Source: a virus (lineage: Duplodnaviria; Heunggongvirae; Uroviricota; Caudoviricetes). Taken from it: a stretch of 11,289 nt of DNA. Each line of letters opens with the position of its first letter. Position 1 is the first letter of the stretch. The stretch lies in IMG/VR virus record IMGVR_UViG_2645728091_000014, positions 1 through 11,289 of that record; one strand, given 5' to 3'. This document shows, piece by piece, positions 1 through 11,289 of the stretch. The position numbers and the translations under genes are program-made. The notes under the pieces are model-generated. The model searched no databases, was not told where the DNA came from, and saw only the letters and a list, made by a program, of their open reading frames with translations.

Positions 1-249
1 ATGCGCACACAGGTTGTATTGCAAAAATGGGGTAATAGCATTGCCCTTCGACTAACGGGAAACCTTAAAACCGTTCCGGGTTTTTCAGTGGGTGATATCG
101 TCAACGTTGAAATTAGTGAAAAGGGGCTTTTTGTAGAAAAGCCTGCACGCCGTCGCCTGAGTGAAGCCGAATTACTCGCCGGGATAACGCCAGTTACAGC
201 GCACGCGGACGAAATTGCCCCCCCATTCAATGAGGAGGTTGATTACTGA
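1..249 (+). CDS. MazE/PemI-family antitoxin (SpoVT/AbrB-type)
   Basis: 82-aa ORF starting with ATG at base 1. N-terminal K-W-G-N-S-x-A-x-R motif is typical of MazE/PemI/ChpS antitoxins. Stop TGA (247-249) overlaps the ATG of the downstream toxin gene (TGATG). Confidence 0.8.
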   Translation: MRTQVVLQKWGNSIALRLTGNLKTVPGFSVGDIVNVEISEKGLFVEKPARRRLSEAELLAGITPVTAHADEIAPPFNEEVDY

Positions 250-593
250 TGTTTGTACCTAAGCGTGGTGATATTTGCTGGCTGGATTTTGAGCCGCAGA
301 AAGGAAAAGAGATCGGAAAGTATCGCCCGGCACTCATACTGTCCCATGAGCAATATAACCGACTCACCGGGCTTGTCATATGCTGCCCCATAAGTACGAG
401 CATACGAAATGCTCCCACAGAAGTTCCGGTAACAAATCTGGACGCCCCCAACGTTGTAGCAACCACACTCATTCAAACCCTTGACTGGCGTCAGCGGAAA
501 GCGCGCTTAATCACAGAGGCAGAAGATGGGGTATTTAATGATGTGCTTGAAAGAGTCATTACCCTGATTGGCGGAGAGCATCTGCTTAAGTAA
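249..593 (+). CDS. MazF/PemK-family mRNA interferase toxin
   Basis: 114-aa ORF with the family-typical N-terminus (P-x-R-G-D-I-x-W-L-D-F-E-P-x-x-G-x-E-x-G-x-x-R-P-A-L-I-L-S), comparable to MazF/ChpBK/PemK. Start overlaps the antitoxin stop. Confidence 0.85.
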   Translation: MFVPKRGDICWLDFEPQKGKEIGKYRPALILSHEQYNRLTGLVICCPISTSIRNAPTEVPVTNLDAPNVVATTLIQTLDWRQRKARLITEAEDGVFNDVLERVITLIGGEHLLK

Positions 594-597
594 AAGG

Positions 598-615
598 AGG
601 GCTGAGAAGCCCTCA
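598..615. terminator. GC hairpin between convergent genes (possible bidirectional terminator)
   Basis: GAGGGCT (598-604), loop GAGA, AGCCCTC (609-615), lying between the toxin stop and the stop of the minus-strand 423-aa ORF. The T-tract is weak on both strands. Confidence 0.35.
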
Positions 616-636
616 ACGTTACCGGAAATTTCCTTG

Positions 637-1908
637 CTATTCTTTCCAGTCAATCCCATCCAGTAAGCACCCTGCTTCATATTGCCCCACCACCCAGTCA
701 AGGTTACAGGACTCATAGAACGCGAGGCGATTATACTGAGGCTCGTTTTTTACCAGGCCACGAACGGAACCACGCTGCCAGTACAGACACAGATTGGCAA
801 GAGGTGTGATCAATACAGCATTGTCCGGGAAAAATGGAACGGTCACAGCCGGGAGATTCCCCAGAACAGGATTTTTAATGATTTCCTCGTTAAGCAAAAT
901 TTCCTGATTCATCTGCGATGGATCAAGACGGTTTATCAAAGGCCATTGCTTACGGACCAGCGTATTGTGACTGCATACGGCCACAATGCCTTCCTGCCAC
1001 TGTTCATCAATCATGGATTGCCAGGCATCCAGAACGAGCGCATCTATCGTATGGTGTGTACCGCGTGTATTACTTTTCGGTGATGAAACAGAAAGGCCGC
1101 TGATAACCCTTCCCGCCGCTTCATTTCGAAACTTCTGCAACCAGCCCACGCCGCAATCATCACGCCCCGGATATGTTCCGGGATCTGATGTATCGGCATA
1201 GTGCGTACCGTTAAAACCAATCTGAATCAAATCCAGCCATTTCCGGCGTTCAAAAGCAGCCCGTGCGCTTCCTTCAAGACCGTTTGCGGATGCGTGAGCA
1301 TCAACATTGTCGTAGTTCAGCGCAAAATCAAAATTAACCTGCTCGCAGCGGTAGCCCCTTGAAACCAGTGAATGCGCCTGTAGTGGCGAACGGCGCGCGT
1401 GAGACGGTGATGTGCGTGCCAGCGGCCCCGAAGCGTCTACCAGCACAACCCGACCTGATATATCCGTAACAGGCACGGGAGTTATTTCAGCAAGGAAATT
1501 TGCCTGCCATCCACTGGCAAGCGTTGCACTCTGGCGGGGAACAGGCTCAACTTCTGATGAATAGCGCGCAGTGTCATCGGAAAAGTGCAAGTCCTTCGGA
1601 TGCTTTCCGGTTATCGACTCGATAGCGAGATTGAAAGCTATCTGAGACTGTTGATTTCGTTGTGACACAACAGAACCAGCAGTGCGATTATAACGCTCAA
1701 TGCCGTTGTTATTGCCCTCACCGTTTGCAGAATGCAGGGTGTGAAGCTCGAGTTCGCGCTCCAGTTTTTGATATTCATTGTCCAGGGCGCGACGGGTTTC
1801 ATCGCTTATGCCTGCTGTATTTGCTTTCAGGCGATTCCGGGACATTGATCCCCTGAGTCGGCTCACTATATCAGCGACGTGCAAATGTGGAATGTTCAGA
1901 CCGCCCAT
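637..1908 (-). CDS. hypothetical protein ORF2 (423 aa), function unknown
   Basis: Long minus-strand ORF. Preferred start is the ATG at 1908-1906, which overlaps the TAA stop of ORF1 (minus-strand TAATG) and is preceded by GGGGGTGG. The track's 470-aa version starts at 2049 and would overlap ORF1 by 141 nt. No Walker A, CxxC or other motif recognised by eye. Confidence 0.7.
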   Translation of the reverse strand: MGGLNIPHLHVADIVSRLRGSMSRNRLKANTAGISDETRRALDNEYQKLERELELHTLHSANGEGNNNGIERYNRTAGSVVSQRNQQSQIAFNLAIESITGKHPKDLHFSDDTARYSSEVEPVPRQSATLASGWQANFLAEITPVPVTDISGRVVLVDASGPLARTSPSHARRSPLQAHSLVSRGYRCEQVNFDFALNYDNVDAHASANGLEGSARAAFERRKWLDLIQIGFNGTHYADTSDPGTYPGRDDCGVGWLQKFRNEAAGRVISGLSVSSPKSNTRGTHHTIDALVLDAWQSMIDEQWQEGIVAVCSHNTLVRKQWPLINRLDPSQMNQEILLNEEIIKNPVLGNLPAVTVPFFPDNAVLITPLANLCLYWQRGSVRGLVKNEPQYNRLAFYESCNLDWVVGQYEAGCLLDGIDWKE

Positions 1909-2618
1909 TACTGCCACCCCCGGCAGAGTTCTCTGCCCTCCGCAAGGTCGCGCATTTTTTCTGAATTCTGTCGCGCTGCGCTCCATTGTACAGGTGAAGG
2001 GGCGCTCCTGATTGCGCAGCTTACTGAATCCGGGAGTTTCTCCGGGCAATAACGCAGCGGGCTGGAGGTGTCGCTTTCGGTATCGTTAATCCGGCCGCGA
2101 ATCATCCCGACACTTTCAGCAGTATCTGCCGCTTTCAGTGTTTCGCATATTTTCTTTTCTGCGTTATACAGCGGCTGGCCAAGCAGCTCACATAAACCAC
2201 GAATCAATAACAGAACAGGGGTCAGCTCGTTAATCAGTTCGGGAAGTGCTTTTGCAAATATCTCTGCCCGCAACTTATTATCAATACTTTCGTAAGCACA
2301 ACCAGCCTCTGCCGCGTTATAACGACACTCCAGTAGCCTGATGCGCGCCTCATCATGCAGCACCCGCAGACGCTCAAGATTTTCTCGCGCCACACCCGCC
2401 TGAATGGATAATTTCGCGGAGGCTTCCGTTTTTACTCCCAGCGCAGACAGGATTGAGTTCTGCCAGTCACGATCGAGAGACTCCAGTTCCCCTTTCGTCT
2501 GTTCGATAGTCGCTTCCAGATTGGTGACTAATGATTCCTGTTCACTGAGTTTTGCCCTGGCAGTATCAAACCGTGCTTTACATACCTGATGTTCGGCGCT
2601 TGCCTGAGTTATATCCAT
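1908..2618 (-). CDS. hypothetical protein ORF1 (236 aa), predicted helical; possibly Psu-like
   Basis: ATG at 2618-2616 preceded by AGGAG with a 6-nt spacer. N-terminal half is rich in heptad-like charged/Leu segments. Weak resemblance to my recollection of P4 Psu (N-terminal FDT, central A-L-x-P-E-L...E-L-T), unverified. Confidence 0.7.
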   Translation of the reverse strand: MDITQASAEHQVCKARFDTARAKLSEQESLVTNLEATIEQTKGELESLDRDWQNSILSALGVKTEASAKLSIQAGVARENLERLRVLHDEARIRLLECRYNAAEAGCAYESIDNKLRAEIFAKALPELINELTPVLLLIRGLCELLGQPLYNAEKKICETLKAADTAESVGMIRGRINDTESDTSSPLRYCPEKLPDSVSCAIRSAPSPVQWSAARQNSEKMRDLAEGRELCRGWQ

Positions 2619-2627
2619 TATTTGCTC

Positions 2628-2728
2628 CTGTAATACATTTTTTACTTACGCCGATTTTTTCCATATTGCGTAATACATTCCAGCCGATTTTGTTCTCGTA
2701 ATACGCTCACAATACTGTTGTATTACGC
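2628..2728. promoter_or_regulatory. divergent control region with four GTAWTAC heptamers
   Basis: GTAATAC at 2630-2636, 2670-2676 and 2698-2704; inverted GTATTAC at 2720-2726. Lies between the starts of ORF1 (minus) and the RHH gene (plus). The ORF1 ribosome-binding site abuts the first copy. Confidence 0.45.
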
Positions 2729-2782
2729 TTTCTTATATCGCGGGTGTTAAATCCCGGCATAAACAATCAGGGAGGCAACACG

Positions 2783-3016
2783 ATGAAAAAACAAAAGAAA
2801 ATGCGATGCGTATTACGCTGTATTCGTATCCCGCACGAAATCGACCATAAAATAAATCAGATGTGTGAGGACAGAGAGATGAACTACTCCCAGTGCGTCA
2901 GAATGTTTATCAGTCAGGGAATTAAGGCCGGGGAAACGCAGGAAGAAGACCGTGACGGGCGCAATGTGGCGGGGGATGTGTGGGCCTGGGCAAATGACCA
3001 GAACCACACGACGTAA
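2783..3016 (+). CDS. putative ribbon-helix-helix (Arc/CopG-like) DNA-binding protein
   Basis: 77-aa ORF from ATG 2783 preceded by GGGAGG with a 7-nt spacer (the track's 2744 start is a GTG without an RBS). Residues VLRCIRIP then two helices (EIDHKINQMCEDREM, NYSQCVRMFISQG) fit the beta-strand/helix/helix pattern of Arc/MetJ/CopG repressors. Confidence 0.55.
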   Translation: MKKQKKMRCVLRCIRIPHEIDHKINQMCEDREMNYSQCVRMFISQGIKAGETQEEDRDGRNVAGDVWAWANDQNHTT

Positions 3017-3066
3017 TACAGCAATAACGCAGCCGGTCACACTCGCTGGCTGTGTTATACAAATCA

Positions 3067-3249
3067 CTATGAAGTTTTCGCCTTCCTGCGCTTAGTGATG
3101 CGTACAAACGACTCAAGCGTACAAAAACAAGCCCCACACTCAATATTATTGCACTGGTAATACGTTCTGTAGATGTTTTGTTCGTGTTCTTCCAACGAAC
3201 GACCACGGGTGCGGGCTGAAGCGCCACAGGCCGGGCAAGGGAAAGACAT
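3067..3249 (-). CDS. ogr: Ogr/Delta-family zinc-finger late-gene transcription activator
   Basis: 60-aa ORF with C-P-x-C...A-R-T-R...Y-x-C-x-N-x-x-C...F-x-T-x-E-S, matching the Cys4 pattern and spacing of P2 Ogr / P4 Delta. AGGAG 6 nt upstream of the ATG. Confidence 0.8.
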   Translation of the reverse strand: MSFPCPACGASARTRGRSLEEHEQNIYRTYYQCNNIECGACFCTLESFVRITKRRKAKTS

Positions 3250-3283
3250 ATCACGCTCCTCTTACTGGTGTGAAATTTAACCT

Positions 3284-3289
3284 ATTATA
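3284..3289 (-). promoter_or_regulatory. candidate -10 hexamer (TATAAT on minus strand) for ogr
   Basis: Perfect TATAAT on the minus strand about 35 nt upstream of the ogr ATG. No convincing -35 at 17 bp, so activator dependence is possible. Confidence 0.3.
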
Positions 3290-3610
3290 TCTTCCGCCGC
3301 CTCCTCTGGCTGTATCAAATAAACCCGCAGCAGTCGCCGCGTATTACGCACGGGCGCACCGTTCTCATGCTCACTCGTCACATTCCCCGTATCAGTTCTC
3401 TCTTGCCGTAAGAACGGCTCTGGCTGGCGATAAAACTAACCCGGTCGGGCATTCCCGCAGCCTTTAGCGAAAATGTCATTTACCCCCTGAAACGCGTGCT
3501 GTTCCCCCGTCACCTGCGCGCGAAAAACTCACCGTTTTTTGTGCACGCACGAAATCGCCCTCCGGGCGCGCCAGTACTGGGCCGGATGGGCAAAAAGTTA
3601 CTCTAAAAAA

Positions 3611-3637
3611 TTGTGCAAATTTGTGCACTTTTGTGCA
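3611..3637. repeat. three direct TTGTGCA repeats at exact 10-bp phasing
   Basis: TTGTGCA at 3611-3617, 3621-3627 and 3631-3637; a fourth copy at 3539-3545. Two copies extend to the palindrome GTGCAC. Confidence 0.6.
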
Positions 3638-3862
3638 GATGAACAATAGCGTCAAAAAGAGTGCTTTTGAGAGATTTTTTATGGCAACTGCGCCGCGTGT
3701 ATTACGTTTTTTACCATCCCCGCCGTGCATGTACATACTTCATTTTCTGCCAAACAACAGGGCAACTCCCCGTGACTGACAGCCCCAAAAAATCAATGAT
3801 TAATGTTGCATTTTTGTTAGAGATTAGACCAGTTGTTTTGGGGCTCTGCCTCATAATCCGGT

Positions 3863-4179
3863 GGGGGGTGCGCAAAGCGGTTACAACGGTTACAACAGTT
3901 AAAAACACAACTTAACAGTATGATTTTAATGGATATTGTTTGTAACCGCTTTGCGGTTACACTGCGGTTACAACGGTTACAGGTTTCAAAAAGCACTTTA
4001 TTATCAATCAATTAAAAACTTAACCTGTAACCGCCTGTAACCTAACAAAACGGTTACATGTAACCGCGTTGTAACCGCTTTTGTAACTCATCCGACCAGT
4101 TATAATATATTGATATATAATACAAAAATAAGTAATTCTAAATTTGTAACCGTTGTAACCGCTTTGCGCATCCCCCCCC
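3863..4179. repeat. iteron array bounded by a perfect 27-bp inverted repeat; putative ori/crr-like or att-arm region
   Basis: 3869-3895 (TGCGCAAAGCGGTTACAACGGTTACAA) is the exact reverse complement of 4144-4170, extended by G6 (3863-3868) / C8 (4172-4179). At least 13 GGTTAC/GTAACC hexamers lie between, as direct repeats (3878-3895, 3953-3981, 4024-4043) and palindromes (3941-3961, 4051-4066). An AT-rich stretch sits at 4100-4143 and an IHF-like WATCAANNNNTTR match at 4002-4014. Confidence 0.6.
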
Positions 4180-4366
4180 AAACTTTAGCGCGACCCTTTA
4201 AAATGTTAATTAAACTCACTTACTCTGTCTCATTCTCATTAACTCTCTGTGATTAAAATGTATCTCGTCATTATTTGACTCTTTCTGATAATCAGGGGGC
4301 AAAAAATTGATGGCGGCACCACTGCAATATGGCCACCATTGCATTGCCGTTACCGTTGGTTCTGGC

Positions 4367-4397
4367 CAACAAAAAAGGTCAGCGGGAAACTGACCTC
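4367..4397 (-). terminator. rho-independent terminator downstream of int
   Basis: Stem GGTCAG (4377-4382) / CTGACC (4390-4395) with 7-nt loop. On the minus strand it is followed by TTTTTGTT, 30-60 nt after the int stop. It is also T-rich on the plus side. Confidence 0.6.
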
Positions 4398-4425
4398 TTT
4401 TGCTGTGAATGTAGCGTTCTGCGGG

Positions 4426-5430
4426 TTACTCTGCTGGCTCTTTTTCTTCGATGATCACTATGTTGGCTACCGGGTTAAATCTCATGGCATCTGCCAGATA
4501 ATCCGGTGCAAAATGTGCGTATGCCATAGTCTGCTGAATTGTCGCATGCCCAAGGATTTTTTGTAGCGCAAGAATGTTGCCACCGTTCATCACAAAGTGA
4601 CTGGCGAATGTATGCCGCAATACATGCGCAGCCTGCCCCCTCGGTAAATCGGGTTTTATTTTTTTTAATGCCCGGCAAAACTCTCTATACTTCACATCAA
4701 ACAGTCGCCCGGTTTCTTTTGTTTTTACGGCATCGCATATTTCCTGCGACACAGGCACCGTTCTTTTTCTACCGTTTTTGGTTTCCAGAAACGTTATTCT
4801 ATTATGAACTATTTGCTCTCCATGCAATCTGCTGGCCTCACTCCAGCGGGCTCCGGTACATAGACACAAGAGCGCAACCCTTCGTTGATCTCCATTCAGC
4901 CCGTCAAGCAACAATGTGACCTCGTTTTTTGATAAAAAGGCCATTTCCCGCTGCTTTACATAAAGAACAGGAATACCACGAACCGGATGCTCTGCATCCC
5001 ACAAACCGATCTTTTTCAGGGCTGTAAACATCCCCGATAATCTGTTCATGTATCTGTTTGCTGAGGACGGCTTTAATCCTTCCGCAATTTTCTGCGATCG
5101 CCATGCAATGATTTTTAATTTGTCGAGTTCTACCGCAAACATGTCAGCTCCAAGCTCATTAATAATTTTGCCAAGCTGCTGTTTATCCGTGTTTGCCTTT
5201 CGCCTGTGCTGACCGTGATAAACCCACCACAATTCCAGTAAATCGCTAAGCGTTCTCCGGTCGCGATAGCCCTGTATAAACTCGCGCTTTTCGGCGTTCG
5301 CTATGATGTACCGTTCAGTTGCTGTAGCTATCGATTTTTTGTCAAATATTCTTCTGATGCGCTTCCCTTTACGTCCGCATGGCCTGATATCGAGCAGCCA
5401 CCGCCCATCATGCATCTTTCTGATCGGCAT
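4426..5430 (-). CDS. int: tyrosine recombinase / phage integrase (P2-type)
   Basis: C-terminal H-x-L-R-H-T...L-G-H...Y catalytic motifs. N-terminus (DGRWLLDIRPCGRKGKRIRRIFDKKS) resembles P2/186-type integrases. Preferred ATG at 5430 lies 2 nt after the primase stop with AAGGAGG upstream; the alternative ATG at 5466 adds 12 aa. Confidence 0.9.
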   Translation of the reverse strand: MPIRKMHDGRWLLDIRPCGRKGKRIRRIFDKKSIATATERYIIANAEKREFIQGYRDRRTLSDLLELWWVYHGQHRRKANTDKQQLGKIINELGADMFAVELDKLKIIAWRSQKIAEGLKPSSANRYMNRLSGMFTALKKIGLWDAEHPVRGIPVLYVKQREMAFLSKNEVTLLLDGLNGDQRRVALLCLCTGARWSEASRLHGEQIVHNRITFLETKNGRKRTVPVSQEICDAVKTKETGRLFDVKYREFCRALKKIKPDLPRGQAAHVLRHTFASHFVMNGGNILALQKILGHATIQQTMAYAHFAPDYLADAMRFNPVANIVIIEEKEPAE

Positions 5431-5432
5431 GT

Positions 5433-8102
5433 TTAACGCCCCTCCTTGTAACTGAATATCCGGCATTTCAGTACTTCCGGCTCTCTGGCCTCGGCGACCC
5501 CTCTTCCGGCGTTTGCCTGTCTGGAGACCTCACTACGAATGGTTTTGCGGCCTGTCAAAGGTCGGGAACGTCCTGCTCCGAGCAACTCAATCATTTCGCG
5601 GTCAGTGCGGATCTCCACGCGGTGAATAGCGGCAGCCTGTGCCAGTTGCGGAATACTGATAGCAATCCCCTCGCGGCATCCCTTGCCGTAGTGGTTTACA
5701 CCGTATTTTGTTATGCCGTCCAGGAAGTCGAACGCCTCCCAGAACTCCATCACTTCCGGTAAATCAGCCGCCGCCGCTTTAACCTGCGCTGTTGCCATTT
5801 GTTCCAGTTCCAGACATGTGGCATCAAGCCATTCATCTGGGATATCAATAACGCATTTCAGCGCCCTGACCAGCGCGATAAGTTGTGCGTGATTTTTGGC
5901 GATGCGGGGATGGCGAATATTTTCGCATCCGCAAAGGCGTTCCGTTTCAACTGGAGATACTTCCAGGAACGTTTGCATAATCGCCCGTTCCTGACTTGCC
6001 GCCCGGTGAATAAACCCAGATACCTTCTCGACGGGGTAAAGTTCCAGCCGTCTCGCCGCCAGGCGGGTATCAGGTGAATGGCGTTTTTTATCGGTGTATA
6101 TGCGTATCAGGCGCTCAATAATTGCCGGAGAGGCGTTTACCCGCGCATTCTGCGCAATCACGATAGCGCCCTTAAAATCCGGATCATAGGTGTTGTTATT
6201 GTTGGCCTTAACACCACGAACGCCGATACCACCGCCGTTATAGAGACTTTTCAGGTTATCGAAGTCAAACGCACCTCTTTTTTGCGCATTGTCTCCCCGG
6301 TCCGCTTCAATCAGAACAACAGGTAATCCGGCGACCTGTCCAAAGGTGCGCTTCCAGCCCGCCTCTGATCCTTTGGTTGGATCAACGCCTTCATAGTTGT
6401 CACGACCGCACAGCCGCCAGCAAAAATCAATCAGTGTTGATTTACCCGTTCCGGGCTCCCCGGTGACTTCAAGGAAGGGGAAGGATTCTTCTTTATCCCG
6501 GATTTGTTCGCTGAACAGGGAGCCCAACCAGAAAGCCAGGGTAATAATTCCCTTTTCACCAAAAGCCAGCCAGAGATCTTCCACCCAGGACGCTGTAAAT
6601 TCATCCGGTTTTTTGTAGTTAATCTGTAATGTGGGTTTTTCGCTTAATGGTTTTGCGTTTATGCCATCAATTTCAAAATAATCCTCATCATTGATTTCAT
6701 AAGTTTTACCCTTATAAACGGCAATATCATTAAACAGCCATGCCCCAATTCCCTTGTTGTATCCGATAAAATCCTGACCAATAACCTCTTTTATTGCGGG
6801 AAGGTCATTTTTTATTAATGCGTCAAGCTGCGTAGTCGTTCCGGTATAAATACCGCCTTTTGCCACGTGCAGCAGGCGTTTTTTAAATTCAGATGAGGAT
6901 GTTAATTGTCCTGATGTAAAGGTGTTTTTCACCGTAGCACCATCCGGGAATGTAACGCGGAAGTAATACCATGCTTCATCCGTGTCATTGTTTCGAATGT
7001 AATAAAGCGGCACTGGGTTACAGTTTGCGATTTCTTTTACAGCACCGGATTCCTTAAGTGCAATTTTGCGCGCTTCGTCTTCGTCAACATTTCGCTCATT
7101 AATGACACGCTCAACAGCCTTCATATGGCGCTCAATGTCCAGCTTGAACCAGAAAACACGGTTATCAAAAGTAAAATGAAATTCCTTCCGCTCACGAAAG
7201 GAAAACATTATTAGTGCCTTATCTCTTGGAGATTTCGCCAGCAATAAATCACCGTAATAACGGTATCTTTTCACATCATGGCCACGCAGCTTTCCGGCGA
7301 TGTGTAAATCATTCCAGTCGCGTTTATTGCTGTTTTTACCCGGTAACGCCGCCGCCGTTCTCCAGCCGTCTTCGGCGCTGCGTTCTGCATGTTTTTTCGC
7401 GTAACGTTCACCCGCACGCCCGTTATCCAGGGCCCACACAATAACCGGACGGGGATTATCTCCGCACAGCTTCGCCAGCTCTTCCAGCGCCTTATCAGGG
7501 TAGTTCACGGCAGACATGACAGAAACGGCCGCAATGCCATTCTGGTTAAGGCTGATGGCATCAAAGATGCCCTCACAAATCCAGATTTCTTTGGCCTTGC
7601 TTAAATCTGCTCCCGGATAAGCCCACCACAACCCCTTGTAGCTGCCGGAAAAATTCGCCTTGCGCGCGAAGCGTCCCGGTCGGTCTATGATGCGCTCCCA
7701 CCACACGCCGTCAGCCAGCGTAAAACGCACAGTAGCGGCCTGTTCGCCGTTTTCCTTGTCCTGGTATCGCTCCTGAGTAAATGCGCCCTTCAGTGGCCCC
7801 ACAGCAATATTGCGCGCTTCCTGAAGATAAGCTGCCGCCGCTGCATATGGCTCATCTTTCGTGCTGATATAACGATCTGACCATGATGAAAACACATCCG
7901 GGTAAAGTTCTTTGGTCAGCAGGTCTATACCGCATTTATTTTCGCGCCCACAGTGTACGATGTACGGCCTTTCAAGGCTGGTAAACAACTCTTTCTTTCC
8001 ACATTGCGGACAAACACCATACCGGAGGTAGTTATTTTCTTCTTTGAAGTTGTAATCACGGATAAGACGGTTAATAATCTCTTTTCTGATGTCAGATTTC
8101 AT
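5433..8102 (-). CDS. alpha-like DNA primase-helicase (zinc-binding N-terminus, TOPRIM primase, SF3/D5-type helicase)
   Basis: N-terminal C-P-x-C...H-C...C zinc motif, TOPRIM-like E-G-I-F-D-A and L-D-N-G-R-A-G, and Walker A G-E-P-G-T-G-K-S-T. Preferred ATG at 8102 with GGAG 8 nt upstream; the track start at 8126 is a GTG inside a hairpin. Confidence 0.9.
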   Translation of the reverse strand: MKSDIRKEIINRLIRDYNFKEENNYLRYGVCPQCGKKELFTSLERPYIVHCGRENKCGIDLLTKELYPDVFSSWSDRYISTKDEPYAAAAAYLQEARNIAVGPLKGAFTQERYQDKENGEQAATVRFTLADGVWWERIIDRPGRFARKANFSGSYKGLWWAYPGADLSKAKEIWICEGIFDAISLNQNGIAAVSVMSAVNYPDKALEELAKLCGDNPRPVIVWALDNGRAGERYAKKHAERSAEDGWRTAAALPGKNSNKRDWNDLHIAGKLRGHDVKRYRYYGDLLLAKSPRDKALIMFSFRERKEFHFTFDNRVFWFKLDIERHMKAVERVINERNVDEDEARKIALKESGAVKEIANCNPVPLYYIRNNDTDEAWYYFRVTFPDGATVKNTFTSGQLTSSSEFKKRLLHVAKGGIYTGTTTQLDALIKNDLPAIKEVIGQDFIGYNKGIGAWLFNDIAVYKGKTYEINDEDYFEIDGINAKPLSEKPTLQINYKKPDEFTASWVEDLWLAFGEKGIITLAFWLGSLFSEQIRDKEESFPFLEVTGEPGTGKSTLIDFCWRLCGRDNYEGVDPTKGSEAGWKRTFGQVAGLPVVLIEADRGDNAQKRGAFDFDNLKSLYNGGGIGVRGVKANNNNTYDPDFKGAIVIAQNARVNASPAIIERLIRIYTDKKRHSPDTRLAARRLELYPVEKVSGFIHRAASQERAIMQTFLEVSPVETERLCGCENIRHPRIAKNHAQLIALVRALKCVIDIPDEWLDATCLELEQMATAQVKAAAADLPEVMEFWEAFDFLDGITKYGVNHYGKGCREGIAISIPQLAQAAAIHRVEIRTDREMIELLGAGRSRPLTGRKTIRSEVSRQANAGRGVAEAREPEVLKCRIFSYKEGR

Positions 8103-8115
8103 ATATAAAACTCCA

Positions 8116-8145
8116 CCCCACTGCACCTTTTGCAGTGGGGTTTTT
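8116..8145 (+). terminator. perfect 10-bp GC hairpin plus T-run in the primase 5' leader
   Basis: CCCCACTGCA (8116-8125), loop CCTTT, TGCAGTGGGG (8131-8140), then TTTTT (8141-8145) on the plus strand. On the minus strand the stem is followed by UGGAGUUUUAUAUAUG, which contains the primase RBS and start. Confidence 0.45.
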
Positions 8146-8150
8146 ATTAA

Positions 8151-8450
8151 TTACTCGTTACTTATTGCTTTGGCAATCCCGGCGGTTTCGGCACTATGCC
8201 ATGAAAAAATTCCGCCAGAAGTATGCATTCCTGACTTAATCGCTCGTAATTCCCGATAAAGAATGTTAGTTAATGATTCCATTTCATTAATTTGCACTGG
8301 CATTCTCTCACTGGTATTAATTTCACCTGTCAATGCTGAAAGGAGCGCAATAACATTTATTACATCTTCAAGATTCTCAATGGAATCTTCCGTGAAAAAA
8401 CCAGCGTATTCTTTTTTGTATATATTGCGGATATTCTGATTTTCAGACAT
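8151..8450 (-). CDS. hypothetical protein (99 aa), AT-rich
   Basis: ATG at 8450 preceded by GGGGAG with a 5-nt spacer. Visibly more AT-rich than the flanking primase and small-ORF block. Confidence 0.5.
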   Translation of the reverse strand: MSENQNIRNIYKKEYAGFFTEDSIENLEDVINVIALLSALTGEINTSERMPVQINEMESLTNILYRELRAIKSGMHTSGGIFSWHSAETAGIAKAISNE

Positions 8451-8517
8451 AAAAACTCCCCGACCCGTTAAGATCGAAATATAAATTTAATTCAGTTATC
8501 AGTTGGTAATTCGGGAA

Positions 8518-8736
8518 TCAGGCGGAAAGCTGCGTCACCTTCAACGCTTTGAAATGTGTCATTCCCAGCTCTTCCAGCCCTTCGGCTGCGCGGCGTATGG
8601 CTTCGCCCGGTCCCGTTCCGTATACCGTTGCATGTGCATGTTTGGTTAACCCACGTTTATTAACGGCATAACCCAACACAAAGAAACGTTTTTCACCACT
8701 GCCATTATTTTTACGGGATATTGAACGGCTTTTCAT
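8518..8736 (-). CDS. hypothetical small protein (72 aa)
   Basis: ATG 8736-8734 overlaps the TGA stop of the upstream ORF (ATGA), indicating translational coupling. Confidence 0.5.
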   Translation of the reverse strand: MKSRSISRKNNGSGEKRFFVLGYAVNKRGLTKHAHATVYGTGPGEAIRRAAEGLEELGMTHFKALKVTQLSA

Positions 8737-8921
8737 TTCTTCACCTTTAGCACTGATGCTGTGAGTTCTTCTTCTGGCAATTGATATTTCGGCGCAATTT
8801 CTTCCGTATACCTGATAGCATCCCTTGCCGCTTTTCCTTTTGATTTATATTTACGTATCGTGTAGAAGTTTTCTTCCTCTCCTGTTACCACATTACGCAA
8901 TTTAATATGAATCTCGTACAT
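8733..8921 (-). CDS. hypothetical small protein (62 aa)
   Basis: Preferred ATG at 8921 is preceded by GGAGGGG and sits 2 nt after the TAA stop of the upstream ORF. The track version starts 10 codons earlier at 8951. Confidence 0.5.
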   Translation of the reverse strand: MYEIHIKLRNVVTGEEENFYTIRKYKSKGKAARDAIRYTEEIAPKYQLPEEELTASVLKVKK

Positions 8922-8923
8922 CG

Positions 8924-9106
8924 TTACCCCTCCATGATTTTTACTGCGCATTTGTGGGTTAATCGCCCCTGTTTGTCATTGCGGGAATATGCCATACGAC
9001 AGGCATCACGCCATGCATCGTCATAAGTCGGATATTCCCAGGAATGAATCATCTGGCGAACGTCGCCGTTCTGGTAGTTAATCAGGGTGATAAGGAGCTT
9101 AAACAT
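8924..9106 (-). CDS. hypothetical small protein (60 aa)
   Basis: Preferred ATG at 9106 is preceded by GGGAGG about 7 nt upstream. The track's 86-aa version (start 9184) has no RBS. Confidence 0.5.
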   Translation of the reverse strand: MFKLLITLINYQNGDVRQMIHSWEYPTYDDAWRDACRMAYSRNDKQGRLTHKCAVKIMEG

Positions 9107-9272
9107 GGCACGCCTCCCGGACACGGATACGGGCAACAAAGACCAGACGGGATGCCGGAAGCATGGCGCGCGCTTCGCGCTCACTGGCAGCGGTAACGGT
9201 ATGAAGGCGAATATTTTTACCGTGGCACTGCATAAAGCGCCAGATAAAATCAGGGCGTGTTGATATAGCCAT
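9099..9272 (-). CDS. hypothetical small protein (57 aa), possibly Icd-like
   Basis: ATG at 9272 preceded by AAGGAG. The track's 175-aa extension to 9626 is low-complexity and lacks an RBS. The E-R-E-A-R ... L-V-F-V-A-R-I motif pattern resembles my recollection of Icd-like proteins in P4-like prophages, unverified. Confidence 0.4.
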   Translation of the reverse strand: MAISTRPDFIWRFMQCHGKNIRLHTVTAASEREARAMLPASRLVFVARIRVREACHV

Positions 9273-9629
9273 TTTGGCGGCTCCTTGATTAAGTTTACGG
9301 AGTCTCGCCAGCACGCTGCTAAACATGGTGGCGGGACGTAACAGGGTTAGCAGACTGGCAATCAAGGAACCAGCGAGCGCAAAGGCTCCCCCATTACGCC
9401 CCGCCATAATACGGGGTAGGGTGGAATTACGGGCACAAAAAAACCGCATTACGGAAATATAGCGGCTACCCGCTTGATTGTTCAGGCTGCTAAACCCGGC
9501 ACCCGCTTTATGAGGTGCGGGCAAACGATACGCCATGACAAAAAAGCGAGTCAAGCAATATTGCAAATTATTTTTGCTCACTTGCGCTGAGTGATTGATT
9601 TTAAAGAGTAAAAAAGCCATAATCATTTC

Positions 9630-9720
9630 TGCCTATTACTTCTTATTGCTGACTTTAGGTGCATTAAATGCACATCCTTGACTGGTTGGCTCGCTAGCTT
9701 CAGCGAGCTTCTTTTTTTTT
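9630..9720 (+). ncRNA. candidate ~90-nt plus-strand small RNA, antisense to the minus-strand operon leader
   Basis: Plus-strand TTGATT (9595-9600), 17-bp spacer, CATAAT (9618-9623), then a GTGCATT/AATGCAC hairpin (9659-9673) and a terminator hairpin with T-run (9689-9720). No plus-strand ORF of note. Confidence 0.25.
9689..9720 (+). terminator. intrinsic terminator oriented on the plus strand
   Basis: GCTCGCT (9689-9695), loop AGCTTC, AGCGAGC (9702-9708), then TTCTTTTTTTTT (9709-9720). On the minus strand the A-run precedes the stem, so it is not a minus-strand terminator. Confidence 0.5.
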
Positions 9721-9820
9721 GCTCTGCTGCCAGTACTTGGCCTCCTTCCCCCACATGTAGCAATACGTTCAGATCAGTAAGTTTTGCCACCCAGTGATGG
9801 ACGCAATAAACCACCAACGC

Positions 9821-10141
9821 TTATTCAACTCTGGCGCTACCGGATTCTCTCTCCCTTTTCTTTTTGGCGTTTTCGTATGGGTTATTCACTTTGGCAATAA
9901 CTGGCGGATTACGTAGCCACCACAAAACATCACTTAACAGCCAGGTACATGAGCAACGCCCCAAAGAGTGACGAGGAGGAAAAGCACCGATCTTCTCCAG
10001 TTCCCAGCGGCGGGAGCGTGAAAGCGTGGTCATTTTTTTACACTTCTCTTCCCTGATGCGTTCTTCGCAGTCAAAGCCATACTCGGCGAGTATGGTGCGG
10101 CGCTGTTCTGGAGTTGGTGGAATGAATGCGGATTGAGTCAT
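9821..10141 (-). CDS. alpA: AlpA/Vis-family phage transcriptional regulator (excisionase-like HTH)
   Basis: 106-aa ORF. The segment L-S-R-S-R-R-W-E-L-E-K-I-G-A-F-P-P-R ... W-L-L-S-D-V-L-W-W-L matches the AlpA HTH pattern. Confidence 0.8.
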   Translation of the reverse strand: MTQSAFIPPTPEQRRTILAEYGFDCEERIREEKCKKMTTLSRSRRWELEKIGAFPPRHSLGRCSCTWLLSDVLWWLRNPPVIAKVNNPYENAKKKRERESGSARVE

Positions 10142-10202
10142 ATTTCCCCCTATGTTTCTGAACTTTCGGGGGAGATTTTTGTTTTACGGAGTTTTGAAAG
10201 CA

Positions 10203-10239
10203 AGTATTAAAGGTCTTATTAAGATGCTTGCTGGTCTTA
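10203..10239. repeat. two 15-bp direct repeats 21 bp apart in the alpA upstream region
   Basis: GGTCTTATTAAGATG (10203-10217) and GGTCTTACTGAGATG (10224-10238), 13/15 identical, overlapping the 3' end of the 350-aa ORF. Confidence 0.35.
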
Positions 10240-11289
10240 CTGAGATGATGCTTTAATCCATCTTGATATAGTACTTTTATCAAAGCGCATATTGAGTCCT
10301 GCCTCTCTTGCTTCCGCGGTCAATATATCAGCAAGTTTTACCGGATTGTTTTCGAGTTCTTTATAATGAATAACAAGCATCGCACGAAAAAAATCCTTCA
10401 TTGTTTTAGATAATCGTTCTATATTGTTTTTATTGGTGCATATGTCTTTCTCTCCATCCTCAGAACTTAATATATTGTTACCCGCACACAAATATAAAGT
10501 ATCTGCCAATGGATTAACATAATCTTTTCTTAACTCGCTATTGGAGTTTGTAGCATTTTGTATTTTTAAAAAATCATTCTTTAAGATATATAAATCACCA
10601 ATATCAAAAGAAACATCCTCAGTAACAATTAGTCCTATATGTATATCAACGTCAGAAGCAATTATAATATTGCTATTAATTATTCGGTTGGCTTTAAACT
10701 TCTTATTAAAATCATAGTTGGCAAAAAAACTTCCCCCCAAAGCGAAAATGCCGCCTATTTCAACAAAATACTTATGGTATTTTTCTTGAATACCTTTAAA
10801 TACTGGTGGCACAACTGCCACAGCTCTTTCATCCGTTGCTATTCGATATACACTATATATGTGATAATTTTCCCCATAATATACCCCCCTGTTATAATAA
10901 TTTAACAAAGCAAATGCAGTATCAATTGCTATGTCACCAAATTTGGGCGTTACATATGAATGACTTAGAGATTCGCACATTGAATCAAATATAATTCTCG
11001 ACTTGGTTTTTATATAATTAAAACCATGGTGTTCTGCCGCCCTTTCTGAAATGGCATCAAGATCAGATAACCGTGATTTACACGGTTCTGAATCCATAAA
11101 CTTACGCAGACAATCGAAATTAACCACATCTTTTTCATCTGGGATATTTAATACTCCATATGCAGATTCAATTTTTATACAAATACGAATGCAGCCTGTC
11201 ACAGCCCAATGAATAAGATCGTCAATATCGCAGTCTAATAACTTTGCCGCGCGCTCAATAGGATAGTAATCTCTTAGTGGTAACGTCAT
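10237..11289 (-). CDS. hypothetical protein (350 aa), AT-rich, HTH-like segments at both termini
   Basis: ATG is the last three bases of the window, so the true start may lie upstream. N-terminal Y-P-I-E-R-A-A-K-L-L-D-C-D-I-D-D-L-I-H-W and C-terminal A-D-I-L-T-A-E-A-R-E-A-G-L-N-M-R-F-D-K-S-T-I-S-R-W-I-K look like helix-turn-helix elements. A weak G-G-S ... S-D-V-D-I stretch was noted. Confidence 0.65.
   Translation of the reverse strand: MTLPLRDYYPIERAAKLLDCDIDDLIHWAVTGCIRICIKIESAYGVLNIPDEKDVVNFDCLRKFMDSEPCKSRLSDLDAISERAAEHHGFNYIKTKSRIIFDSMCESLSHSYVTPKFGDIAIDTAFALLNYYNRGVYYGENYHIYSVYRIATDERAVAVVPPVFKGIQEKYHKYFVEIGGIFALGGSFFANYDFNKKFKANRIINSNIIIASDVDIHIGLIVTEDVSFDIGDLYILKNDFLKIQNATNSNSELRKDYVNPLADTLYLCAGNNILSSEDGEKDICTNKNNIERLSKTMKDFFRAMLVIHYKELENNPVKLADILTAEAREAGLNMRFDKSTISRWIKASSQ

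Follow-up and report, generated by a model that had tools for sequence, protein, structure and literature searches.

A putative replication origin in a P4-like satellite of Escherichia coli whose iterons co-vary with the tail of a phiCTX-type primase-helicase

Introduction

The alpha protein of P4, a satellite of P2-like phages, unites a Toprim primase and a P-loop helicase with a C-terminal region for origin recognition, which is a winged helix (PMC2777425; PDB 1KA8). The P4 genome, whose repeats we read from NC_001609, holds two repeat clusters, ori and crr, which lie 4.5 kb apart, and a 120-bp direct duplication. The crr cluster follows the alpha terminator directly; its octamers occur in both orientations, and the first two are spaced 9 bp apart. 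In PICIs, as drawn in Fig. 2 of PMC6092414, origins are found immediately 3′ of the initiator gene (pri-rep) and comprise iteron sets flanking AT-rich DNA; allelic initiator-origin pairs are also described there.

A further repeat-rich region is the R3 region of phage phiCTX (NC_003278, positions 35100-35390), located between attP and cosR. It spans about 290 bp and holds 12 GGTAAT hexamers in both orientations, the first pair being 9 bp apart. Its terminal inverted pairs are separated by 244 nt, and two IHF sites are annotated within it. The phage also encodes a primase, orf37, at a distance of 4.4 kb. The GenBank record gives the R3 repeat region no function, and our search of the accessible literature for an origin or for an experimental characterization of the phiCTX-type primase/R3 family found nothing.

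Here, we analyze 11,289 nt of viral DNA (IMG/VR record IMGVR_UViG_2645728091_000014, positions 1 to 11,289), hereafter referred to as the window. Our focus is on a dense array of short repeats at positions 3860-4179, which is very probably the replication origin of a P4-like satellite with a phiCTX-type primase-helicase.

Results

A chromosomal island of the E. coli ST131 strain 2019_APHA, integrated between hpt and gcd, matches the window at 99.9-100% identity. The order along the island is a MazEF-like pair, a P2-family major capsid gene, an Ogr/Delta gene, the stretch 3472-3638 and the array, followed by a tyrosine recombinase, an 889-aa primase, small ORFs, a C4/isrK-type immunity RNA region, an Icd-like gene and AlpA. 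Judged by this gene content and order, the window is therefore a P4-like satellite residing in the E. coli chromosome. The integrase of the element itself, 399 aa long, is encoded outside the window at the gcd end. Pairs of the repeat TTGATACAC are present at both element ends (10553-10580 and 23264-23290 of the complete element, L001), and these are probably the arm-type sites of this end integrase.

Several other features of the satellite deserve mention. At the hpt-side element end, positions 1-593 (+) encode a MazE/AbrB antitoxin and a PemK/MazF toxin. The major capsid protein of the P2 family is encoded at 637-1908 (-; Pfam E = 4e-73), and upstream of it follows a gene for a 236-aa protein without assigned function (1908-2618, -). 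Neither Sid nor Psu was detected in the satellite, and the possession of a capsid gene of its own, which is unusual for a P4-like element, suggests a capsid-forming satellite. Homologues also occur in L007 and L008, which are satellites of Klebsiella and Enterobacter. The stretch 3472-3638 resembles the end regions of Xuanwuvirus/P88-like phages at 77-82% identity and presumably represents cos; no match to the P2 cos 19-mer consensus was found within 3 mismatches, and three TTGTGCA repeats follow the presumed cos (3611-3637). At 9324-9531 (-), Rfam models detect a C4 antisense RNA (74.7 bits), isrK (52.1 bits) and, weakly, the a1/b1 target, marking a P4/P1-type RNA immunity region that overlaps the Icd-like ORF. 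Finally, positions 10237-11289 (-) encode a 350-aa protein adjoining the end integrase, which is conserved in sister satellites and has no match in Pfam or NCBIfam.

The tyrosine recombinase gene, int2 (4426-5430, -), sits between the primase gene and the array and is not part of the proposed origin. Its product has 334 aa (start at 5430) rather than 346 aa; it shares 81% identity with the integrase of P88-like Xuanwuvirus phages, the very phages whose end regions resemble the stretch 3472-3638, and ~51% with P2 Int. Because the 399-aa integrase and the TTGATACAC pairs occupy the element ends, we classify int2, by sequence and position, as a second, internal recombinase of helper-phage type. 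The first-pass annotation had spoken of an integrase; the recombinase encoded next to the array is this helper-type enzyme and not the integrase of the element. Judging from the translation, int2 seems to keep its catalytic motifs (R, H-x-x-R and Y) unimpaired. In sister satellites, int2 alleles are 50-55% identical, while their flanks (the primase end and the spacer 4180-4430) are 84-100% conserved. No attP for int2 was found. The array was considered as a candidate and rejected: it is internal in int2-type prophages, the spacer 4180-4430 is conserved to 84-100% while int2 alleles are ~51% identical, and the region does not resemble the Xuanwuvirus att regions. It may be that int2 acts on the att sites of the helper. 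A hairpin at 4376-4396, between int2 and the array, was scored by the terminator scan on the + strand; we read it as a terminator closing the primase-int2 transcript, since its T-run follows on the - strand.

Turning to the array itself, the features that the first-pass annotation had described, namely, a perfect 27-bp inverted repeat with G6/C8 tracts, at least 13 GGTTAC/GTAACC hexamers, some 250 bp of enclosed DNA, an IHF-like site and a very AT-rich segment, were all recovered at the coordinates given there and go far beyond chance. The perfect core of the inverted repeat, TGCGCAAAGCGGTTACAACGGTTACAA, lies at 3869-3895 and 4144-4170 and is flanked by G6 (3863-3868) and C8 (4172-4179). Our repeat search extends it to arms of 36 nt (3860-3895 and 4144-4179), which are 94% complementary and have 248 nt between them. 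Positions 3879-4160 contain exactly 13 hexamer copies within 282 bp; over the entire window there are 16, compared to 3.9 ± 2.1 expected, and 0 of 200 shuffles reach this number. The real repeat unit is CGGTTACA, to which 12 of the 13 hexamers extend, and degenerate copies are seen at 3897 (AGTTAA), 3982 (GGTTTC) and 4083 (GTAACT). Within blocks, iterons start 8-15 bp apart. Instead of one AT-rich segment there are three (3896-3941, 76% AT; 3982-4026, 76%; 4089-4143, 80%; window, 54%), and the IHF consensus WATCAANNNNTTR occurs twice, at 4002-4014 (+) and 4103-4115 (-). No DnaA box was found in the array region, nor any structured RNA or tRNA, and a promoter/terminator scan within the array yielded nothing convincing, including no convincing outward promoter.

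Read from left to right, the array opens with the left terminal arm (3860-3895), consisting of a G-run, GCGCAAAGC and two direct CGGTTACA iterons 9 bp apart, a module that is kept in all aligned relatives. It is followed by AT-rich spacer 1 (3896-3941), which holds an invariant ATGAT, and by iteron block A (3942-3987), with one reverse CGGTTACA (3942) and three forward ones (3955, 3966 and 3975) in addition to the degenerate GGTTTC. AT-rich spacer 2 (3988-4026) carries the first IHF-consensus site, which is also kept in L002, L004 and L005 and at an annotated phiCTX IHF site. Iteron block B (4027-4088) comprises reverse copies at 4027, 4037, 4060 and 4071, a forward copy at 4052 and the degenerate GTAACT. 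The AT-richest segment (4089-4143; 55 bp), which is primase-proximal and contains the second IHF-consensus site, is our candidate for a DNA-unwinding element. The right terminal arm (4144-4179), a mirror image of the left arm, ends in C8. The terminal G-run and CGGAAA-like motif (3860-3878 and 4161-4179; GCGCAAAGC in the window) are conserved whatever the iteron core, and among E. coli lineages the variable bases of this motif agree between both arms.

Of 5426 complete E. coli genomes, 66 contain the array, each at a single locus and always inside this satellite; across these 5426 genomes, no copy was located on a plasmid. All of the 60 matches listed out of these 66 are single colinear pieces, and no inverted isolate was seen among them. 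Comparison loci were fetched by primase from species-representative genomes and IMG/VR. In 36/36 loci analyzed, which include E. coli, Klebsiella and Enterobacter satellites as well as Providencia, Proteus and Escherichia P2-like phages, a ~300-bp architecture accompanies the phiCTX-type primase. The shared layout runs from a G-run, CGGAAA and two direct iterons through an AT-rich spacer, mixed iterons and a second AT-rich spacer to further mixed iterons, a third AT-rich spacer, two inverted iterons, TTTCCG and a C-run. Downstream of homologous primases of 52-56% identity, this same layout is seen in Providencia/Proteus P2-like prophages, in Klebsiella/Enterobacter satellites and in Escherichia phage ESSI2_ev239, and it recurs in the R3 region of phiCTX. 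An alignment of 10 arrays has as its invariant positions the T.ACA of ~11 iterons, the terminal CGGAAA/TTTCCG and a few spacer bases, with the other spacer positions varying. All 36 arrays have the same polarity with respect to the primase gene, even though they are 66-74% identical to their own reverse complement.

While orientation is fixed, the distance to the primase gene varies. The array starts 137-270 bp past the primase stop codon in 17/36 loci and within 470 bp in 21/36. The int2 gene intervenes in 13 E. coli-type loci; in L007, L008, L046 and L095, the array starts 0.8-1.4 kb past the stop codon, with an accessory gene in the gap in L007 and L008. In one E. coli variant (L005), the array comes between the primase gene and int2, and five of the 36 array-bearing loci have no int2-like gene at all. 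In ESSI2_ev239 and phiCTX, several kilobases separate the primase gene from the array, which is found between the int/att region and cos. Of the window proteins, the primase alone has a homologue in each of the six comparator loci. An instructive case is L006, an integrated P2-like prophage with an int2-type integrase at the prophage end beside host ahpF and with portal and terminase genes further on: its array is intact, internal and 5 kb from int, so that the array is not the attP of this integrase family. A 6-mer scan of more distant Pseudomonas, Burkholderiales and metagenomic loci mostly found no comparable array, the exceptions being phiCTX and possibly L011. As far as sequence comparison goes, this distribution shows one replication module, the phiCTX-type primase with its putative origin, exchanged between P2-like phages and satellites.

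Two Providencia prophages contain more than one array. In L017 (8830-9375), a full CGTTACA array is accompanied by a GGTTACA mini-array, which is shortened but retains both terminal modules, and L009 (8770-9690) has partial GGTTACA, full CGTTACA and full GGTTACA arrays in tandem. The primase tails of both prophages are of the CGTTACA type. These extra arrays may be recombination relics or decoys.

The primase-helicase gene of the window (5433-8102, -) encodes an 889-aa protein of the phiCTX orf37 type with Toprim and P-loop motifs. Its ATG start at 8102 agrees with RefSeq and with all homologues, as opposed to the GTG at 8126 (897 aa) of the mechanical ORF. The protein is 41% identical to the primase of phiCTX, 44-45% to those of Ralstonia RSY1-like phages and 52% to that of ESSI2_ev239. 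A tblastn search against phages matches phiCTX-type primases, not P4, and in an hhalign comparison with P4 alpha the Toprim domain alone matches (89 columns, probability 69%). The helicase class is weakly indicated by a DUF5906 match (E = 0.005) that is below the Pfam cut-off. No homology to solved structures was found for the primase sequence. An AlphaFold (AF2) model of the last 200 aa (pLDDT 87.9) predicts four long helices followed by a beta-alpha-alpha-beta-alpha-beta subdomain; the underlying alignment is shallow, since a homologue search with the C-terminal 260 aa gave 10 proteins, mostly fragments, and a separate 85-aa model was too poor for use. When compared with solved DNA-binding folds, including that of P4 alpha (1KA8), the subdomain gave no significant match, so its predicted role in DNA binding rests on the co-variation described below.

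The iteron core varies by lineage, changing at every copy together (e.g., GGTCAC throughout L004 and L029), and with each core go particular states of two to four residues in the primase's last beta-strand. GGTTACA, found in the window and most loci, goes with E-V-x-K at the four x positions of the tail motif P-x-x-x-x-C-W; these residues are D-T-L-K for GGTCACA (L004 and L029), D-V-L-R for CGTTACA (L009, L017 and others), E-V-Q-H for CATTACA (L007 and L008), D-T-F-R for C[GA]TCACA (ESSI2_ev239) and S-T-V-K for the GGTAAT of phiCTX. In 36/36 enterobacterial loci with a located array, the core type agrees with the primase tail without exception; these loci amount to about five independent contrasts because many of the concordant loci are close relatives. 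In the window primase, the co-varying residues are R873, E876, V877, L878 and K879. They fall within codons 873-883 (REPEVLKCRIF; 5454-5486, -), which end in the last predicted beta-strand (residues 877-883), and in the AF2 model they mark the start of the last strand of the C-terminal subdomain. The terminal CGGAAA/G-run motif shows no variation with the iteron core.

The resolution of this association differs between groups. Among 886-aa Providencia-type primases, which are up to 98.4% identical, 11 GGTTACA and 6 CGTTACA proteins are separated only by columns 870, 873, 875 and 876. In the E. coli clade, GGTTACA and GGTCACA primases are told apart by 26 columns, among them 876 (E to D) and 877 (V to T). 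The pairing of V to T with a T to C change at base 4 recurs in two unrelated lineages, as does the pairing of K to R with a G to C change at base 1. Both recurrences hold at gene-to-array distances of 0.2, 1.2 and 7 kb, which argues against pure physical linkage. In Providencia, where only ~200 bp separate the tail codons from the array, the association may partly reflect linkage within a single recombination block. Together, these patterns suggest that primase-array recognition can be read from sequence comparison, and we infer that the primase would be the initiator that binds the array.

How does the locus compare with the systems described above? With R3 of phiCTX, the window shares an array of similar length (~300 bp), about a dozen hexamers in both orientations with a first pair 9 bp apart, terminal inverted pairs at nearly the same distance (248 nt versus 244), the orf37-type primase and a neighborhood in the order int, spacer, array, cos. 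It differs in its core (GGTTAC versus GGTAAT) and in the distance to the primase gene. On these features, the array is a member of the phiCTX-type primase/R3-repeat family.

The likeness to P4 is more limited. The first-pass annotation had drawn an analogy to alpha, ori and crr. Shared with P4 are the satellite lifestyle, the Toprim primase with P-loop helicase and a putative C-terminal origin-recognition region, and the crr-like layout with its first pair 9 bp apart (PMC2777425; reference 15 of PMC8628076). The part of the analogy that fails is the relationship of the primase, which is of the phiCTX orf37 type with similarity to alpha detectable in the Toprim domain only, and the number of clusters, which is one in the complete element L001. 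The P4 octamer TGTTCACC resembles TGTAACCG of the window; the type 1 octamer as such is absent, the window unit being CGGTTACA (TGTAACCG). There is no counterpart of the 120-bp direct duplication, and unlike P4 the window array is near-palindromic with G/C-run ends. Since the octamer differs, alpha homology is limited to Toprim and there is a single cluster, the array is, on present sequence evidence, not a member of the P4 ori/crr system. The 17 arrays 137-270 bp past the primase stop codon sit where P4 crr and, as depicted in Fig. 2 of PMC6092414, PICI origins do. The layout also matches PICI origins in its iteron sets around AT-rich DNA and in the existence of allelic initiator-origin pairs. 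PICIs differ by their initiator family, and the array described here comprises four iteron groups with three AT-rich spacers between them and has terminal inverted modules that are strictly conserved.

Discussion

A cluster of short repeats well above chance, adjacent AT-rich DNA and a co-inherited, cis-linked initiator gene are the attributes of an iteron origin, and all three are found at this locus. The proposal that the array would be an iteron-type origin served by the neighboring primase-helicase, already put forward in the first-pass annotation, is the best supported of the readings considered. It gains support from the strict co-occurrence of array and primase, their fixed polarity and the co-variation of iteron core and primase C-terminus, to which the anatomy of the array and the concerted change of its iterons can be added.

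If the array is the origin, the C-terminal subdomain of the primase (residues ~810-889) would bind the ~13-16 CGGTTACA iterons, arranged as two mirror-image terminal pairs and two internal blocks of mixed orientation, with the last beta-strand reading the variable iteron bases. IHF would bend the AT-rich spacers. The bound primase might then melt one of these spacers, most likely the 80%-AT segment at 4089-4143, load itself as the helicase and prime synthesis. The near-dyad layout would suit two oppositely oriented hexamers and hence bidirectional theta replication after excision of the satellite. A comparable layout is known from the origins of SF3 helicases (SV40 large T, papillomavirus E1), where short dyad initiator sites beside AT-rich DNA suit a double hexamer; the likeness is one of analogy only.

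Several other readings of the array have to be weighed. It could be a primase-bound cis element of the P4 crr kind, that is, an enhancer with copy control by handcuffing or titration and not the start site itself. In relatives, the array lies directly downstream of the primase terminator, as does crr, which likewise has two direct iterons 9 bp apart and mixed orientations, and the partial arrays of other specificity in L009 and L017 resemble titrating copies. We nevertheless judge this improbable: a single iteron cluster in the whole element leaves no second site to serve as ori, and the array has AT-rich segments and IHF-type sites of its own. A role of the hexamers as att arm-type sites, be it for int2 or for the element's own integrase, was among the alternatives named at the outset. 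The arm-binding-type N-terminal domain (Int_N) of int2, the location of the array ~250 bp downstream of int2, which is the attP position in P2-type phages, and the phiCTX order of int, attP, R3 region and cos would all fit. This alternative is contradicted by integrated satellites and prophages, in which the array is internal: the element between hpt and gcd has its 399-aa integrase at its end and TTGATACAC pairs at both ends, and Providencia prophages with an int2-type integrase keep the array intact, as described for L006. Moreover, arrays are present in loci without an int2-like gene, int2 alleles differ by ~49% between loci with identical GGTTACA iterons, and in phiCTX the attP region, with its R1 and R2 repeats, is annotated apart from R3. 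We therefore regard arm-type sites as very unlikely.

A long perfect inverted repeat beside a tyrosine recombinase also brings to mind an invertible switch of fimS-like size, with int2 flipping the 248 bp between the 27-36-bp repeats, all the more since the arms keep matching each other though the outer sequence differs between E. coli lineages. We rejected such an inverton given the colinearity of the 60 of 66 E. coli matches listed and the same polarity toward the primase in 36/36 arrays over deep divergence; the inverted repeat is also present in loci without an adjacent recombinase, and the scan found no convincing outward promoter, leaving a switch hardly plausible. Binding of another protein, such as the late activator Ogr/Delta with its TGT...ACA half-sites, a partition protein or host factors only, could account for the invariant T.ACA/TGT.A bases, and Ogr/Delta genes are common in P2-like phages and satellites. 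Ogr/Delta sites have the spacing TGT-N12-ACA, however, whereas head-to-head iterons give TGT-N15-ACA or an abutting ACATGT; Ogr was undetected in 3/6 comparators, no par genes are present, and the co-variation maps to the primase tail, so we give this idea barely any credence. Finally, the terminal inverted repeats and small size had raised the possibility of a MITE-like insertion or transposon remnant. A check for multiple copies found one locus per genome in the 66 of 5426 E. coli genomes, never on plasmids and always in this satellite, which excludes it; the array is, in addition, always linked to the primase, with a conserved internal architecture. The chance of such an origin for the segment is negligible in our estimate.

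Returning to the replication origin as the preferred reading, one can speculate on its specificity. Residue 877 (V/T) might correspond to base 4 (T/C) of the iteron and residue 879 (K/R/H) to bases 1-2 (GG/CG/CA); such a switchable recognition code could define replication-specificity (incompatibility) groups common to P2-like phages and their satellites, with the foreign arrays of L009 and L017 acting as decoys that titrate a rival primase. We hold this extended scenario to be rather unlikely as a whole. If it were true, origin specificity would be a weapon in phage-satellite conflict.

In terms of principle, our analysis adds nothing new, iteron origins with primase-helicases being known already from P4 and PICIs. 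Its main added value would be a readable initiator-iteron specificity code and a replication module that appears common to P2-like phages and satellites. It assigns a putative function to a conserved noncoding block of a common E. coli satellite lineage and provides a short list of candidate specificity residues and bases, which may be of use for designing orthogonal origin-initiator pairs or for predicting the incompatibility of co-resident elements. By homology, the origin reading would extend to the R3 repeats of phiCTX and to the equivalent regions of many P2-like prophages.
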